Shown piece after piece: positions 768-6,511 of a stretch of DNA of 8,372 bases. Every line of letters begins with the position of its first letter. The first letter of the stretch is position 1. The position numbers and the translations under genes are program-made. This DNA comes from a virus (taxonomy: Duplodnaviria; Heunggongvirae; Uroviricota; Caudoviricetes). The notes beneath the pieces were generated by a model, which was not told the DNA's origin, ran no database searches, and worked only from the letters and a program-made list of their open reading frames with translations. The stretch lies in the IMG/VR virus record IMGVR_UViG_2519899564_000011, positions 1 through 8,372 of that record, one strand, 5' to 3'.

Positions 768-2144
768 TCATACGTCAGCCCCTTGTGCATATCGTCTGCC
801 ACGCGAAGCAGGTGCATTTGATGCTGTGCAAATCTGTCTGGCTTCATCCTGGTCACATGCAACAAAGTGTCCGTTACAGAACCGCTGGTAAACCGTACCA
901 AGTGGGCCAAACCGGTTTTTCGTCACAATGATTTCAGCAAATGGTGCGGCGCTACTGTTCTCGTCATATACCGCTTCCCGATAGAGCATGATGATTGAGT
1001 CTGCGTCCTGCTCAATGCTTCCTGAATCACGCAAATCTGCGTTTGTCGGGCGTTTGTTTGGTCGCTTCTCAACATCGCGCGAAAGCTGACTTAGGGAGAT
1101 AACAGGCGTTTTCAGGTCTTTCGCCATCGCCTTCAGGCTTCCTGAGATGTGAGCAATTGCGAGGTCGTTGCGGTCTGCTTTCGGCTTCTCAATCAGGCCA
1201 AGATAATCCGCCATGATGAGTGACAGGTTTGGATTTTCCTGTTTGTTCCGCTCTGCGATTGAGCGAATTTCTTCTACCGATAACCGCGAGGCATCGACTA
1301 CCCATACATCCAAATCTGCAAGCTGACTCATGCCGTTAGCAACACGCGCCCAGCCTTCGTCATCCATCGATGCAGGATTTCGCAGTACGCTAACCGACAT
1401 CCTCCCGGCGTTGGCAATGCTCCGCTCTGCAATCTGCAATGCGCTCATTTCCATCGAGAAAATCAACACTCCGCGCCGGACGTCAGAACCAGGAATAACG
1501 CGGCTTGCAACACCTTCGGCAATCTTCAGCGCCAGTTCGGTTTTCCCCATACCAGGACGAGCGGCGATAATCACCAGGTCTTCCGCGTTCATCCCTCCGG
1601 TGATGGCGTCAAGTTCTTCGATTCCGGTCTTCAGGGTATCTGACTCTTCTCCGTTCCTCAGACGCCTGTCAAGCGTGTCAGTGTAGTCAGTGATGATTTC
1701 CCCTAACCGTACAGGTTTAACCTCGTCACGGGGCTTTCTGATGGCTGAGAGACGCTTTACAAGCTCGTCCATCGCCTGACTCGATGTATCGATGGTTCCG
1801 CTCTGAATTGGTTCACGCATTTCGTCCATGATTTCCAGCACCAGACGGCGGTGATAGTTATCCGCGACCATTCCGGCATATCCCTTCAGGTTTGCGGCAC
1901 TCGGGCAGTTTTTGCTGGTCATCAGGATTGACGTGAAATGCTCCTCTCCGCACGCCTCGGCAACCATCAGCGCGTCGATTAGGTTTCTGTTTCTCGCCTG
2001 CTTACGGATAACTTCGAAGGCTTTCCGGTAGAGCGGAATTGAAAACGCTTCCGGCTCCAGCGTTGCCAGAACGTCGCTGGCGGTTGGTGTTAATCCACCA
2101 ATCAGCAAGCCACCGATAACGCTCGCTTCGATATCCTGTCTCAT
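768..2144 (-). CDS. replicative DNA helicase, DnaB family (phage P22 gene 12-like, lambda P position)
   Basis: 458-aa ORF; Walker A motif ARPGMGKT; DnaB-like N-terminal domain and RecA-fold C-terminal region; start codon overlaps the upstream O-like stop (ATGA at 2141-2144). Confidence 0.9.
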
Positions 2145-2962
2145 GCAATCCCCCTGTCTGCAAACTTCCCTTCCCGAACTCCCGTTAACGAGTCTTCCCT
2201 CAGCAGGTAATCAAAATCTGCCGTCCAGCCCGTGTCGTTGTCTCCGAAGTAAAACGGCTTGGCCTGATGCACAAACGCCCTGACATACGCTCTGAAACCG
2301 TCCACGTTTGGCGTTTTCAGTTGCGGGATGATTTTCTTCAGGCGGCGTTTTCGTTTCTCGTTGACCGCAACAGCGTGTGGAAGTCTGTCACCGACTTCGG
2401 TGTTGTAGGCGTTCAGGAAGGATTCGTAGTCGATTCGTTCTGCCTTGCGACGTTCAGGTTTAACCTGCCCATCGCCGCCCCCGTTAGGGGGTAAGGGGGT
2501 ATTTGTATTTATTGTCTTTTGTATATTGTCTTTTGTGTTTAGCTGACTTGGCTTATACCCATTAGCCGACTCGGCTAATGTTTTATTAGCTGTTTTAGCT
2601 AATGTTAAGCTGTCCTGGCTAATCCACTGAGAAACCACCTTGTTCACTCCGATTTTCACGCCATCAGCAATGAGGAATTTACGCTCAATAAGCTGGCGCT
2701 TGGCAGCGCAAACATGAGTGTGATGAATACCTGTCATGGCTGCTATCTGCGTGTTTGTGAGTCGATCCATCGGCTTATTGAATCCGTATGTCTTGCGCAT
2801 GATAGCGAGCATCACCTTCATCTGCCGGACGGTTAAATCAGCCATCAGCAGACTGTCGATAATCTCGTTAGCAACGCGCATGAAACCATCTTCGGTATCT
2901 GCCACGCGATGCTCCACGACCTCCAGTTGAGGCCTGTAATCAGCTAACTTAACGACGCCCAT
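2141..2962 (-). CDS. replication initiation protein, lambda O-like
   Basis: 273 aa; N-terminal region ([31 protein letters not shown]) resembles lambda O as I recall it (LTKRQFKVLLAILRKTYGWNKPMDRITDSQL); an iteron array and AT-rich tract sit inside the gene as in lambda ori. Confidence 0.85.
2497..2623 (-). repeat. origin of replication inside the O-like gene: four iterons plus AT-rich tract
   Basis: Four roughly 19-bp repeats with internal dyad symmetry TTAGC-N7-GCTAA at about 2538-2556, 2561-2579, 2585-2603 and 2603-2622; adjacent AT-rich tract 2497-2540 containing ATTGTCTTTTGT twice; GC hairpin CCCCCGTTAGGGGG at 2476-2489. Confidence 0.6.
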
Positions 2963-3110
2963 GTTTCACTCCTGCTTTGGCTAGTCTGTAAACACCAACA
3001 AGGCGCTCTGCGAACGCCCTGTTATTTGCTGCGGCTACCACTAATCCCTCAGGTGAATCAGGGTGTCGAATCTCTTCTTTTTCCTGGTATTTCTTACGAC
3101 GTTTTGTCAT
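2949..3110 (-). CDS. small basic hypothetical protein (53 aa) between cII and O
   Basis: Not in the ORF track (under 60 aa). ATG at 3110 with AGGAG 5-6 nt upstream on the minus strand; product [53 protein letters not shown]; stop overlaps the O-like start. Confidence 0.35.
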   Translation of the reverse strand: MTKRRKKYQEKEEIRHPDSPEGLVVAAANNRAFAERLVGVYRLAKAGVKHGRR

Positions 3111-3145
3111 AATTACTCCTGTGGATTGATACAGTCTTTCTACAA

Positions 3146-3424
3146 TCAGGCCTCAAAACTGTTGCCGCAGTCTTGAGGCTTTTCTTTTGTCAGCACCATG
3201 GCTACTTTCTTTGCCAGCTCCGCTAATTCCTCGTCTTCAACACCCCACTCCAGCACAGCCAGAAGCATGGCCATCTTTGGGATAAAGCTGTCTTTCCATC
3301 GCGAAATTTGCGATTCATTGATCCCTAATGCATCAGCAACCTTTCGCTGACCACGTACAGCAATTCGATTCAGGATGTTGCTTGTAATTGCATTCGCTTT
3401 CTTGCGAGTACTTGTAAGTTCCAT
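3146..3424 (-). CDS. cII: transcriptional activator CII
   Basis: From the ATG at 3424 (AAGGAAA about 9 nt upstream) the product contains GINESQISRWKDSFIPKMAMLLAVLEWGV, close to lambda CII as I recall it (GVDKSQISRWKRDWIPKFSMLLAVLEWGV). The ORF-track start at 3511 is rejected because it runs through nutR. Confidence 0.85.
   Translation of the reverse strand: MELTSTRKKANAITSNILNRIAVRGQRKVADALGINESQISRWKDSFIPKMAMLLAVLEWGVEDEELAELAKKVAMVLTKEKPQDCGNSFEA
3148..3189 (+). terminator. plus-strand intrinsic terminator antisense to the cII 3' end (oop-RNA-like)
   Basis: Stem GCCTCAA (3150-3156) / TTGAGGC (3173-3179) followed by TTTTCTTTTG (3180-3189) on the plus strand, while cII is on the minus strand ending at 3146. 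Confidence 0.5.
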
Positions 3425-3481
3425 ATGTAAGTATTTCCTTAACAAATAAGAAGTTATGCGCATCAACTTATGCGCGTTGTA

Positions 3482-3526
3482 TTCCCGCATTTCGGCGGGA
3501 ATGAGGACCATGACTGTTAAAGAGCG
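3482..3526 (-). promoter_or_regulatory. nutR (boxA plus boxB) between cro and cII
   Basis: Minus-strand CGCTCTTTAACA (revcomp of 3515-3526) matches the boxA consensus; minus-strand TCCCGCCGAAATGCGGGAA (revcomp of 3482-3500) is a 5-6 bp stem-loop and is identical to the boxB candidate at 5223-5241. Confidence 0.7.
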
Positions 3527-3533
3527 GTGTTAC

Positions 3534-3758
3534 TTATGCTGCCTGATTCGGTTTTGGAAACAGGTGTGGCAAATCGGGGCGAATTTCGTAAGCCTTGATC
3601 TGCCCTCCAGTGGCGTTAACGATGGCGGTAACTTTCTCTGGAGAGACCAACCCGCCTTTCAGCCATTTGTGTACTGCTGGCTGCGTTACACCACACTTGT
3701 CGGCAAGGCGCTTTTGGCTACCGACAATTTTCAAGGCTCGTTGAATTACTAAATTCAT
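3534..3758 (-). CDS. cro: Cro-like HTH repressor
   Basis: First gene leftward from the operator region, divergent from cI; HTH-like segment GSQKRLADKCGVTQPAVHKWLK; preferred start ATG at 3758 has AGAGGT 6 nt upstream, whereas the ORF-track start at 3779 has no SD. Confidence 0.7.
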   Translation of the reverse strand: MNLVIQRALKIVGSQKRLADKCGVTQPAVHKWLKGGLVSPEKVTAIVNATGGQIKAYEIRPDLPHLFPKPNQAA

Positions 3759-3789
3759 GAGCATACCTCTTGTGGTCATTACTTATAAC

Positions 3790-3860
3790 CAAAGATAACT
3801 CAAGTTATAAAAAATAGCAATAACCTTTGTTATTTTACTTTGGATAACCGTAGTTATAGA
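3790..3860. promoter_or_regulatory. OR operator region with divergent promoters (PR leftward, PRM rightward)
   Basis: Three 14-bp palindromes ATAAC-N4-GTTAT at 3795-3808, 3820-3833 and 3844-3857, spaced about 24-25 bp. Candidate PR on the minus strand: -35 TTGCTA (3820-3815), 17-bp spacer, -10 TATCTT (3797-3792). Confidence 0.65.
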
Positions 3861-3869
3861 TTTGTGGGT

Positions 3870-4577
3870 ATGAAAACATTCGCAGAAAGACTAAATGCAG
3901 CCATGAGCTCAGCAGGGGTATCACAATCACAGCTTGCTGACATGGTTGGAATATCTCAGCCAGCCATACAGAAGATGTCGTCCGGTAAAACAAACGGATC
4001 TCGCAAGATGGTTGAATTAGCCAATGCTTTAAAAGTGCGCCCTGAATGGCTTAGTTCTGGTATTGGTGAAATGAGGGATGGTGCACATGAAGAACCATCC
4101 AATGTCCGTGATTCATCTTTAAAAGCTGTGGTATGGGAAGACATTAAAAGAAACGATGACGAGTTTGTTGCGTTGCCTCTTCTTAACGTTTCGCTTTCAG
4201 CTGGAAGCGGTAGCTGCGAGCTAGAGGAATCATCGGAGTTCTCTTTGGTTTTCAGAAAGCACTATCTGAAAAAGATGGGAGTATCTGAAAGATCAGCCAA
4301 GCTAGTTAGGGTTGTAGGGCAAAGCATGGAACCAACGCTTCACGATGGCGATGTTGTTGGTGTTAACACGCAAGATACCACAATCAGAGATGGTAAAACC
4401 TACGCTATTTGCCAGTCTGATTTGTTACGAGTAAAAACATTAATCGCCACCCCTACATCGGTGATAATCAGATCAATAAATCGCGAAGAGTACCCGGATG
4501 AAGTAATGGATAGAGATGAATTTCATGAAACCGTAAGGATTATTGGCAGAGTATTCTGGTCGTCTCATAGTTGGTAA
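3870..4577 (+). CDS. cI: CI repressor (N-terminal HTH, C-terminal S24 LexA-like autopeptidase domain)
   Basis: HTH region QSQLADMVGISQPAIQKM; Ala-Gly candidate cleavage site in LSAGSG; Ser in GQSMEP and Lys in LRVKT fit the LexA/cI catalytic dyad. ATG at 3870 preferred over the ORF-track TTG at 3840, which lies inside an operator. Confidence 0.85.
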   Translation: MKTFAERLNAAMSSAGVSQSQLADMVGISQPAIQKMSSGKTNGSRKMVELANALKVRPEWLSSGIGEMRDGAHEEPSNVRDSSLKAVVWEDIKRNDDEFVALPLLNVSLSAGSGSCELEESSEFSLVFRKHYLKKMGVSERSAKLVRVVGQSMEPTLHDGDVVGVNTQDTTIRDGKTYAICQSDLLRVKTLIATPTSVIIRSINREEYPDEVMDRDEFHETVRIIGRVFWSSHSW

Positions 4578-4946: not shown

Positions 4947-5067
4947 CCTGCCGTTCACCACCCAATCAACCATCCTCATCATAGACAAGCATCAAGCCAA
5001 AGGTAACACCTTCACCCCGCACGCAAGCCCTCAAACACCAATCAATCAGCAACATTTACAAAAATAA

Positions 5068-5153
5068 AATACCTTTGTTATCCATCACTTATAACCTATT
5101 CACCATAAAATATAAATTAGGTTATTGACCACACCTATAACCTAAGTTATCTT
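5068..5153 (+). promoter_or_regulatory. OL operators and PL promoter
   Basis: ATAACCTAAGTTAT (5137-5150) is a perfect match to the OR palindrome; ATAAATTAGGTTAT (5112-5125) has one mismatch; a degenerate copy sits at 5068-5081. Candidate PL: -35 TTGACC (5125-5130), 17-bp spacer, -10 TATCTT (5148-5153), the same -10 hexamer as the PR candidate. Confidence 0.6.
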
Positions 5154-6016: not shown

Positions 6017-6511
6017 TTAATAATTTGTCAGCGGCGGTACATATACAGGCTTAGGGTCTGGCGCTCTATACATCCGGTATTCATTCTTACAGCGAGGACA
6101 TGAATGCACAAAGAACCCATTAGATTTTATAGTAACCGTGCTTGGTTGAAGTATCGATATTTTATGTTCGCCGAAGCAATGTGCACAAAGGTTATGCTGC
6201 TGAATAGAAGGATCGGAATGACTCTTAGGTCGATACACGACAGAACCACCTTCAGTTGTATGAAGTTCATAATTCTCAGCTTGCACAACAAACATCTTGA
6301 TTTTTCTATTTTCATCTCGAAGCTTCATTGCGATCTCCTTCTCGGCCTGATAAAGGCCAGAGAGCTCCGCATTAAGCATCTGTAAGTCAGTTATTCTTTG
6401 GTGTAGATCACCAATAGCTTTAGCGATAACAGCATCGTCTCTGGTTTCTTTTATTGTCTTCAGCAGATCATAAGCCTGTTTCGCGGCAGTTATACCAGAT
6501 AACACATCCAT
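6017..6511 (-). CDS. hypothetical coiled-coil plus C-terminal zinc-ribbon protein, antisense to the PL operon
   Basis: 164 aa, ATG at 6511; N-terminal half is heptad-like and charged; C-terminal CAHC...(26 aa)...CPRC pair looks like a zinc ribbon; AT-rich; the only minus-strand gene in the early-left region, with a repeat-rich upstream region. Confidence 0.6.
   Translation of the reverse strand: MDVLSGITAAKQAYDLLKTIKETRDDAVIAKAIGDLHQRITDLQMLNAELSGLYQAEKEIAMKLRDENRKIKMFVVQAENYELHTTEGGSVVYRPKSHSDPSIQQHNLCAHCFGEHKISILQPSTVTIKSNGFFVHSCPRCKNEYRMYRAPDPKPVYVPPLTNY

Follow-up and report, generated by a model that had tools for sequence, protein, structure and literature searches.

The DNA analysed here, 8,372 nucleotides of the Caudoviricetes record IMGVR_UViG_2519899564_000011, is referred to below as the window. 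It carries an O-like replication initiator gene, and an element embedded in this gene at 2478-2623 is very probably the replication origin of an HK97-type lambdoid replicon, lying where the initiator gene of that replicon codes for a linker. Along the direction of O transcription the element consists of four dyad-symmetric iterons, an AT-rich tract and a short GC hairpin, an order that had been proposed by an initial annotation of the sequence and that is borne out, inside a gene of the Phage_rep_O family, with minor corrections.

From this arrangement we infer binding, unwinding, helicase loading and origin activity. O dimers would bind the four ATTAGC-N7-GCTAAT iterons via the recognition helix (residues 79-93, motif IHHTHVC) of an N-terminal winged helix-turn-helix, and the resulting O-iteron nucleoprotein complex would strain the DNA and open the adjoining tract of 20% GC at 2500-2537. 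The C-terminal domain of O would then recruit the phage's own DnaB-type helicase, encoded directly downstream, as with P22 genes 18 and 12; this step would be unlike that of lambda, where P delivers the host DnaB. Rightward early transcription from the cro side would pass through the origin. The features are as follows, with the strand given for genes and coding segments:

2141-2962, minus strand: O-like initiator gene containing the putative origin (PF04492, TIGR01610, phrog_345, near-identity to HK97 gp54)
2684-2728, minus strand: predicted recognition helix, codons 79-93 of the winged-helix N-domain (AlphaFold2 model and co-variation of residues 79-85 with the half-site)
2605-2623: iteron 1, distal and first along O transcription; coding strand ATTAGCCAGGACAGCTTAA, right arm imperfect
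2585-2603: iteron 2, perfect dyad ATTAGC-N7-GCTAAT
2561-2579: iteron 3, perfect 19-bp palindrome ATTAGCCGAnTCGGCTAAT
2538-2556: iteron 4, adjoining the AT-rich tract; coding strand ATAAGCCAAGTCAGCTAAA, left arm imperfect
2500-2537: AT-rich tract, likely DNA-unwinding element; coding strand ACACAAAAGACAATATACAAAAGACAATAAATACAAATA, with the 12-mer ACAAAAGACAAT twice
2478-2491: GC inverted repeat CCCCC-GTTA-GGGGG, positioned like the right-hand palindrome of the lambda origin
2144-2467, minus strand: C-terminal domain of O (about residues 166-273), presumed to recruit the helicase (60% identity to the P22 gp18 C-domain)
768-2144, minus strand: DnaB-family replicative helicase gene (DnaB_C and DnaB family matches)

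Architecture of the element

The O-like open reading frame (ORF) occupies 2141-2962 on the minus strand in the ORF list and encodes 273 amino acids (aa). Its residues 19-113 match Phage_rep_O (PF04492, E 2.2e-33, 115.1 bits against a cut-off of 28.7); the protein also matches TIGR01610 phage_O_Nterm (96.9 bits against a curated cut-off of 45.5) and, along its full length, phrog_345, described as 'replication initiation O-like'. The four repeats of about 19 bp with the form TTAGC-N7-GCTAA reported by the initial annotation are present at 2538-2623 and are non-random. With at most one mismatch, this pattern is found in the window at 2539-2555, 2562-2578, 2586-2602 and 2606-2622, plus a stray match at 3210-3226; these five matches compare with 0.30 expected, and none of 200 shuffles reached five. 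The fifth match, which carries one mismatch and lies inside cII, was considered as a further iteron and judged to be due to chance. No extra degenerate iterons (at most three mismatches) were detected beside the array, and matches of this kind elsewhere in the window are at chance level. The middle two 19-mers (ATTAGC-N7-GCTAAT) are perfect, and each of the outer two departs from the pattern once within the 5-nt arm core, or twice if the 6-nt arms are counted. It has been reported that lambda iterons 2 and 3 are the best bound in footprints (PMC7466680), and the perfect copies of the window are likewise the middle two.

The distances between iteron starts are 20, 24 and 23 nt, followed by 19-20 nt to ACAAAAGA. 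This spacing equals to the nucleotide that of the four gpO sites of a lambda-type origin annotated in the phage 434 record, in support of the earlier proposal of a lambda ori-like layout inside O. To place this geometry in a wider context, the architecture was compared among the O genes of the window, P22, a Proteus phage, a Yersinia phage, Kapi1 and 434, plus 80 diverged loci from species-representative genomes whose N-domain identity ranges from 98% down to 41%. Nearly every O linker compared contains a dyad-repeat array with the 20/24/23-nt start spacing. In the window the iteron block encodes O residues 114-142, past the end of the Pfam domain (residue 113), and the whole element 2478-2623 encodes residues 114-162, the linker between the N- and C-terminal domains. 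The iterons start at codon positions 2, 1, 1 and 3 and are thus read in three frames; therefore, the repeat exists at the DNA level and not at the peptide level. A window scan for DnaA boxes returned ten one-mismatch matches, none of them perfect, against 7.5 expected, and DnaA boxes are therefore not a feature of this origin.

Adjoining iteron 4 is the AT-rich tract, in which the initial annotation had described a 12-mer repeated twice; both copies were located. On the plus strand ATTGTCTTTTGT occurs exactly twice, at 2511-2522 and 2525-2536, in a block (2500-2539) that has 20% GC, encodes O residues 142-155 and, at -42.8 kcal/mol (mean -55.2, standard deviation 3.6), has the lowest stability of all 40-mers in the O gene. 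An AT-rich box is common to all iteron classes, lambda and 434 included. In nearly all O classes a ACAAAAGA(C/A)A box lies 19-20 nt after the start of the last iteron, and usually again 14-15 nt further on.

The short GC hairpin of the initial annotation, CCCCCGTTAGGGGG (CCCCC-N4-GGGGG), was found at 2478-2491, inside the range formerly given for the origin. It encodes residues 158-162, and a second run of five G at 2495-2499 offers it an alternative pairing partner. Inverted repeats at this position were evaluated in the 60 nt beginning 20 nt past ACAAAAGA, with other segments of the same genes as controls. Of 69 distinct diverged loci, 61% have a strong perfect inverted repeat (score of at least 14) past ACAAAAGA, compared with 16% of the control segments (Mann-Whitney p 4e-11 for the enrichment past the AT tract). 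The position is filled by at least ten unrelated sequences, among them a lambda-type palindrome with an EcoRI site, which scores low in this test only because it is imperfect. Because unrelated sequences fill the same position across diverged loci, the GC inverted repeat appears to be conserved as a structure, not as a sequence, and it would thus represent a conserved third element.

The lambda-type palindrome, TTCGTC(A/C)GAGAATTCTGGCGAA with its EcoRI site, is situated about 35-60 nt past ACAAAAGA in loci L114, L116, L119, L147, L134, L135, L124 and L132. These loci belong to several N-domain and iteron classes, but their C-domain and partner gene are lambda O/P-like. The presence of the palindrome with lambda O/P-like C-domains behind differing N-domains indicates, therefore, that the inverted repeat travels with the C-terminal module.

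As single-stranded DNA, the perfectly palindromic iterons form hairpins (z = -4.9), with a stem of 9 bp in the case of iteron 3. It has been proposed in a 2026 preprint that defence proteins sense lambda origin hairpins, with HK97 listed as OLD-sensitive, and the relevance of this proposal here is speculative. On the plus strand, antisense to O, the segments 2560-2580 (iteron 3) and 2572-2592 (a hairpin across the spacer between iterons 3 and 2) resemble terminators, with a 9-bp stem and a T run. These hairpins are probably a by-product of palindromes and A-tracts, and they could stop antisense transcription through the origin.

Conservation and specificity of the iterons

Variation among close relatives was evaluated in a set of 80 IMG/VR loci with O at least 99% identical, which comprise 66 distinct gene sequences. 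The initial annotation had named the absence of the repeats from otherwise near-identical O genes as the observation that would count against it, and the outcome was the opposite, since in 80 of the 80 loci (66 distinct) the four iterons are retained without any change of position, together with both 12-mers. Across the 66 variants, variable columns amount to 1 of 40 in the iteron arms, 11 of 28 in the iteron centres, 4 of 16 in the inter-iteron spacers, 1 of 39 in the AT tract and 79 of 685 in the rest of the gene. The difference between arms and centres (p 1.2e-4) persists when only third codon positions are considered (0 of 12 variable in the arms against 7 of 10 in the centres, p 7e-4). 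Iteron 2 combines invariant arms with a variable centre, and iteron 4 does not contain any variable column. In the hairpin, 1 of 10 stem columns and 3 of 4 loop columns vary. The linker peptide seems to be almost unconstrained while the arms are fixed, because the iteron centres (2544-2550, 2567-2573, 2591-2597 and 2611-2617) vary more than the remainder of the gene does (odds ratio of about 5, p 2.5e-4). This distribution of variants shows purifying selection on the arms and the AT tract, and not on the centres.

The N-terminal domain that would recognize the iterons was modelled with AlphaFold2 as a winged helix (mean pLDDT 74, about 90 across residues 71-100), with helices at 45-57, 70-77 and 81-93 and a beta wing at 97-106. 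In Foldseek it is matched by dimeric winged-helix regulators of the CRP/FNR and MarR kinds, at weak E-values of about 1e-2. A variable motif (residues 79-85) sits in the model at the start of the third, predicted recognition, helix. In about 75 diverged O genes this helix motif maps one-to-one onto the iteron half-site:

IHHTHVC, IHHTHIC, KHHTHCS and KHYTHCS: TTAGC-N7-GCTAA, 22 loci, including the Yersinia phage with an unrelated C-terminal half
IHRTHVC: GTAGC-N7-GCTAC, 1 locus (L105)
MAxTKCS and xDxTKCS (P22 type): TTTAC-N7-GTAAA, 8 loci
(I/M)L(P/S)HKCS: TTACC-N7-GGTAA, 9 loci
(L/I)SRQNVN: GTCTC-N7-GAGAC, 11 loci
LPRQKVN: TGTCAC-N7-GTGACA, 19 loci
LPVKRCN (lambda type): TCCCT-N7-AGGGA, 4 loci

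In L105 (Enterobacter sp. BRE11; 1501-1845 and about 250 nt downstream), IHRTHVC takes the place of IHHTHVC and GTAGC that of TTAGC. One residue and one base thus co-vary, which is suggestive of a specific contact. The same N-domain class occurs with DnaB-type and with lambda P-type partners, and the iterons always match the N-domain; it is therefore the N-domain, and no other part of the gene, that the iterons go with. The relative position of iteron 1 is shared by 21 distinct diverged blocks that belong to the class of the window. The claim of the initial annotation that the iteron sequence defines the specificity of the O protein is thus favoured by the comparison, in which motif and half-site correspond whichever C-domain or partner is present.

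Another case is that of Kapi1 (L004:643-1590) and CUS-3 (L008:1402-2349). Their N-terminal half is unrelated to Phage_rep_O and is accompanied by direct repeats of the CCGCACA(T/A) type, whereas their C-domain is 95% identical to that of the window. The junction, at residue 144, coincides with the boundary between iterons and AT tract; past it the hairpin is nearly identical to that of the window and the AT tract is related but diverged. Both phages illustrate clearly that modules have been exchanged at the origin.

It is tempting to read the correspondence of motif and half-site as a recognition code for O initiators and, at the same time, the GC inverted repeat as a functional third element, for instance a helicase-loading or hairpin signal, but this combined proposal is tentative and we consider it rather doubtful. 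If such a code were true, replicon specificity and cross-interference among lambdoid prophages would be predictable from sequence. The motif-to-iteron look-up table could serve to predict, for prophages that reside in one cell, whether they share initiators or compete for them. The table and the conserved inverted repeat are useful by-products of the analysis.

Some observations from the same comparisons concern array size and gene integrity. Expanded arrays are present in L130 (8 iterons), L128 (7), L106 (7) and L108 (5) instead of the usual four, as in the six-iteron Stx origins; in L130, the narrower region searched in the array scan did not contain ACAAAAGA. The size of the iteron array is known to vary within the family (PMC7466680). 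A search for N-domain homologues returned mostly truncated proteins and was used only for the structure-prediction alignment. Among the proteins that share the N-domain (P0001-P0066) many are 90-200 aa long and some bear unrelated tails (PF05810, PF11039, PF13333), which hints at genes that were called too short, or at recombination breakpoints close to the origin. Two metagenome-assembled genomes, labelled Bacillota (L089) and Paraclostridium (L103), contain enterobacterial-type O genes on short contigs, one of them with an N-domain 98% identical to that of the window, and these contigs are probably mis-binned.

Known replicons and alternative explanations

The gene that follows O encodes a DnaB-family helicase of 458 aa (768-2144, minus strand), whose start overlaps the O stop codon and whose product matches PF03796 DnaB_C (E 4.6e-78), PF00772, TIGR00665 and TIGR03600. 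Its homologues are labelled 'DnaB analogue' or 'replicative DNA helicase' in HK97, Nil2 and others. The C-terminal domain of O has no match among Pfam or NCBIfam families and is 60% identical to the C-domain of P22 gp18. The gene after an HK97-type C-domain is DnaB-like in 28 of 28 loci, with no lambda P-like case, and the gene after a lambda-type C-domain is lambda P-like in 11 of 11. Because of this strict pairing of the gp18-type C-domain with a DnaB-like gene and of the lambda-type with a P-like gene, the phage most likely loads its own helicase. The replicon is P22-style, with its own DnaB-type helicase and not lambda P; the initial annotation had indeed spoken of helicase genes. Helicase loading of this kind agrees with the behaviour of a lambda hybrid that carries P22 genes 18 and 12: it replicates, and it is able to grow on a dnaB grpD55 host, by which lambda is restricted at low multiplicity of infection (PMC3349717).

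With respect to lambda and 434, the likeness resides in the four dyad iterons of 18-19 bp with identical 20/24/23-nt spacing, in the tract, A-rich on the coding strand, that begins with ACACAAAAGAC, in the inverted repeat that follows it within the O linker, and in the origin location mid-gene, where lambda O binds four iterons and where P22 gene 18 carries a different set of four repeats, each about 20 bp long (PMC8022706). The window thus contains each component of an ori lambda-type arrangement, namely a location in the O linker, a four-iteron array with lambda spacing, an AT tract after the last iteron and an inverted repeat beyond. The lambda origin is likewise transcribed, from pR, and lambda O is about 41% identical to the O protein of the window, over the N-domain only. 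The differences are the iterons (ATCCCTC-N-GAGGGAT in lambda against ATTAGC-N7-GCTAAT here), the helix motif (LPVKRCN against IHHTHVC), an unrelated C-terminal domain, the partner (lambda P against a DnaB-type helicase) and the sequence of the inverted repeat. With TTAGC-N7-GCTAA and IHHTHVC instead of TCCCT-N7-AGGGA and LPVKRCN, the window falls outside the lambda specificity group.

P22 genes 18 and 12 share with the window the same four-iteron geometry, an identical AT-rich tract, a nearly identical CCCCCTTACCCCCTAA(A/C)GGGGG element, the homologous C-domain and a DnaB-type helicase (87% identity over the available part of P22 gp12). With its gp18-type C-domain and phage DnaB-family helicase, the window belongs to the gene 18/gene 12 type of module. 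However, P22 gp18 is only 50% identical overall and has the motif MAPTKCS with TTTAC-N7-GTAAA iterons, so the origin specificity is predicted to be different from that of P22, and the window lies outside the P22 specificity group. The Stx phages 933W and P27 also have the origin inside O, with iterons and then an AT-rich tract, but possess six lambda-type iterons with lambda-type O and P, whereas the window has exactly four and another specificity.

Plasmid iteron origins, such as those of RepA, pi and TrfA, resemble the element in the disposition of repeated initiator sites beside an AT-rich unwinding element and in the winged-helix initiator. Their iterons are typically direct repeats, bound by monomers and non-coding, and usually accompanied by DnaA boxes. 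The sites of the window are dyad-symmetric, lie inside the initiator coding sequence and have DnaA-box matches at chance level, which separates them from the plasmid type.

The closest relatives are those of the HK97 module. The O gene is 100% DNA-identical to that of an Stx1a phage and 98.9-99.1% identical to those of HK97 (gp54, 98.9%), Nil2 (o), Stx2 phages 1717 and 2851, HK544, HK446, mEp213 and several Salmonella phages. The module of HK97 gp54 (O) and gp55 (P), shared with Nil2, Stx 1717, 2851, HK544, HK446, mEp213 and ST104, has the same element, including iterons, AT tract and hairpin, and differs in essentially nothing; the HK97 locus (L027) presents the same four iteron positions. 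HK97 has been listed as having its own predicted replication specificity, defined by an N-domain at least 92% identical to HK97 gp54 (PMC2629481), and the identity of the O gene together with the iteron positions assigns the window to this group. The architecture, the module and the sequence are already known, given that all three have long been public, the HK97-type replication module since 2000. From a practical point of view, a rep_origin feature can be marked in HK97-type records, with ATTAGC-N7-GCTAAT as the HK97-type iteron consensus.

The 161-nt origin segment is present in 443 of 5426 complete E. coli genomes (about 8%), many of them Stx-phage lysogens. The window itself probably derives from a prophage, because 457 of the 460 matches of the segment in these genomes are chromosomal. 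This provenance makes room for an alternative in which the element is a genuine origin by descent that is inactive in this prophage, a relic kept by recent common ancestry, and many prophages are indeed defective. This alternative is nevertheless improbable: the O and helicase ORFs of the window are both intact, the origin is identical or near-identical in the plaque-forming phages HK97, HK544, HK446 and mEp213, and the arms and AT tract bear the mark of purifying selection across the 66 variants described above.

The dyad repeats could otherwise be operator or handcuffing sites for O or another regulator, acting on transcription or copy number, with replication starting elsewhere. Dyad sites bound by winged-helix dimers are typical of operators, the Foldseek matches are transcription factors, and the plus-strand terminator-like hairpins at iteron 3 and at the iteron 3/2 segment are each followed by a T run. 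This possibility is nonetheless highly improbable, as the lambda-type origin, where the function is established (PMC8022706, PMC7466680), has the same geometry and AT-rich box, a sigma-70 promoter scan of 2100-3900 did not find any promoter-like site, and the window does not contain another repeat-plus-AT-rich structure tied to replication genes. The least probable explanation, by which the repeats would be a by-product of a repetitive O linker peptide (e.g. TLAKTANK / TLAESANG) devoid of function at the DNA level, finds some basis in the location of the iteron region in an interdomain linker without Pfam match and in the similar peptides encoded by iterons 2 and 3, 24 nt apart and in the same frame, but it is ruled out by the three codon phases and the third-position data, in addition to a dyad symmetry that a peptide repeat does not need and a half-site that changes along with a helix motif about 40 residues upstream.

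Several points weigh against the assignment of the element as an HK97-type origin. Support for this iteron type comes from sequence comparison, and this particular prophage copy may be inactive. The records of HK97, Nil2, CUS-3 and HK544 do not contain a rep_origin feature, and a literature search for HK97 or Nil2 iterons, which did not cover the HK97 genome paper, returned only papers on lambda, Stx phages and P22. The structural model is of moderate confidence, its Foldseek matches are weak, and the O sequence has no match among solved structures at E up to 1. The loci in which motif and half-site co-vary are related and mosaic, hence not independent observations. Finally, 6 of the 80 near-identical loci lack a perfect 5-bp hairpin stem.

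Other features of the window

Upstream of O, on the same strand, lie a 53-aa ORF and then cII and cro, with a divergent cI-type repressor gene beyond them. From this gene order, together with O and the helicase, the window is the immunity and replication region of a lambdoid phage in reverse orientation. Between cII and the 53-aa ORF, at 3108-3135 on the minus strand, is the pO/oop homology box of lambdoid phages (ACTGGATCaATCcACAGGAGTaATTATG) with one mismatch. This conserved box has been described for lambdoid phages (PMC3349717). An Rfam scan of the whole window at gathering thresholds did not return any match, including an oop RNA at this box.

Two early-left ORFs have no Pfam match, one at 6869-7729 on the plus strand (286 aa) and one at 6017-6511 on the minus strand (164 aa). 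The short repeats CAT[TC]ACTTATAACC and ATA[AC]CTTTGTTAT are common to 3777-3836, in the cro/cI intergenic region, and to 5060-5127, about 1.3 kb apart, and the two segments probably represent the operators OR and OL in this immunity type. Their stability ranks with the lowest of any 40-mer in the window.

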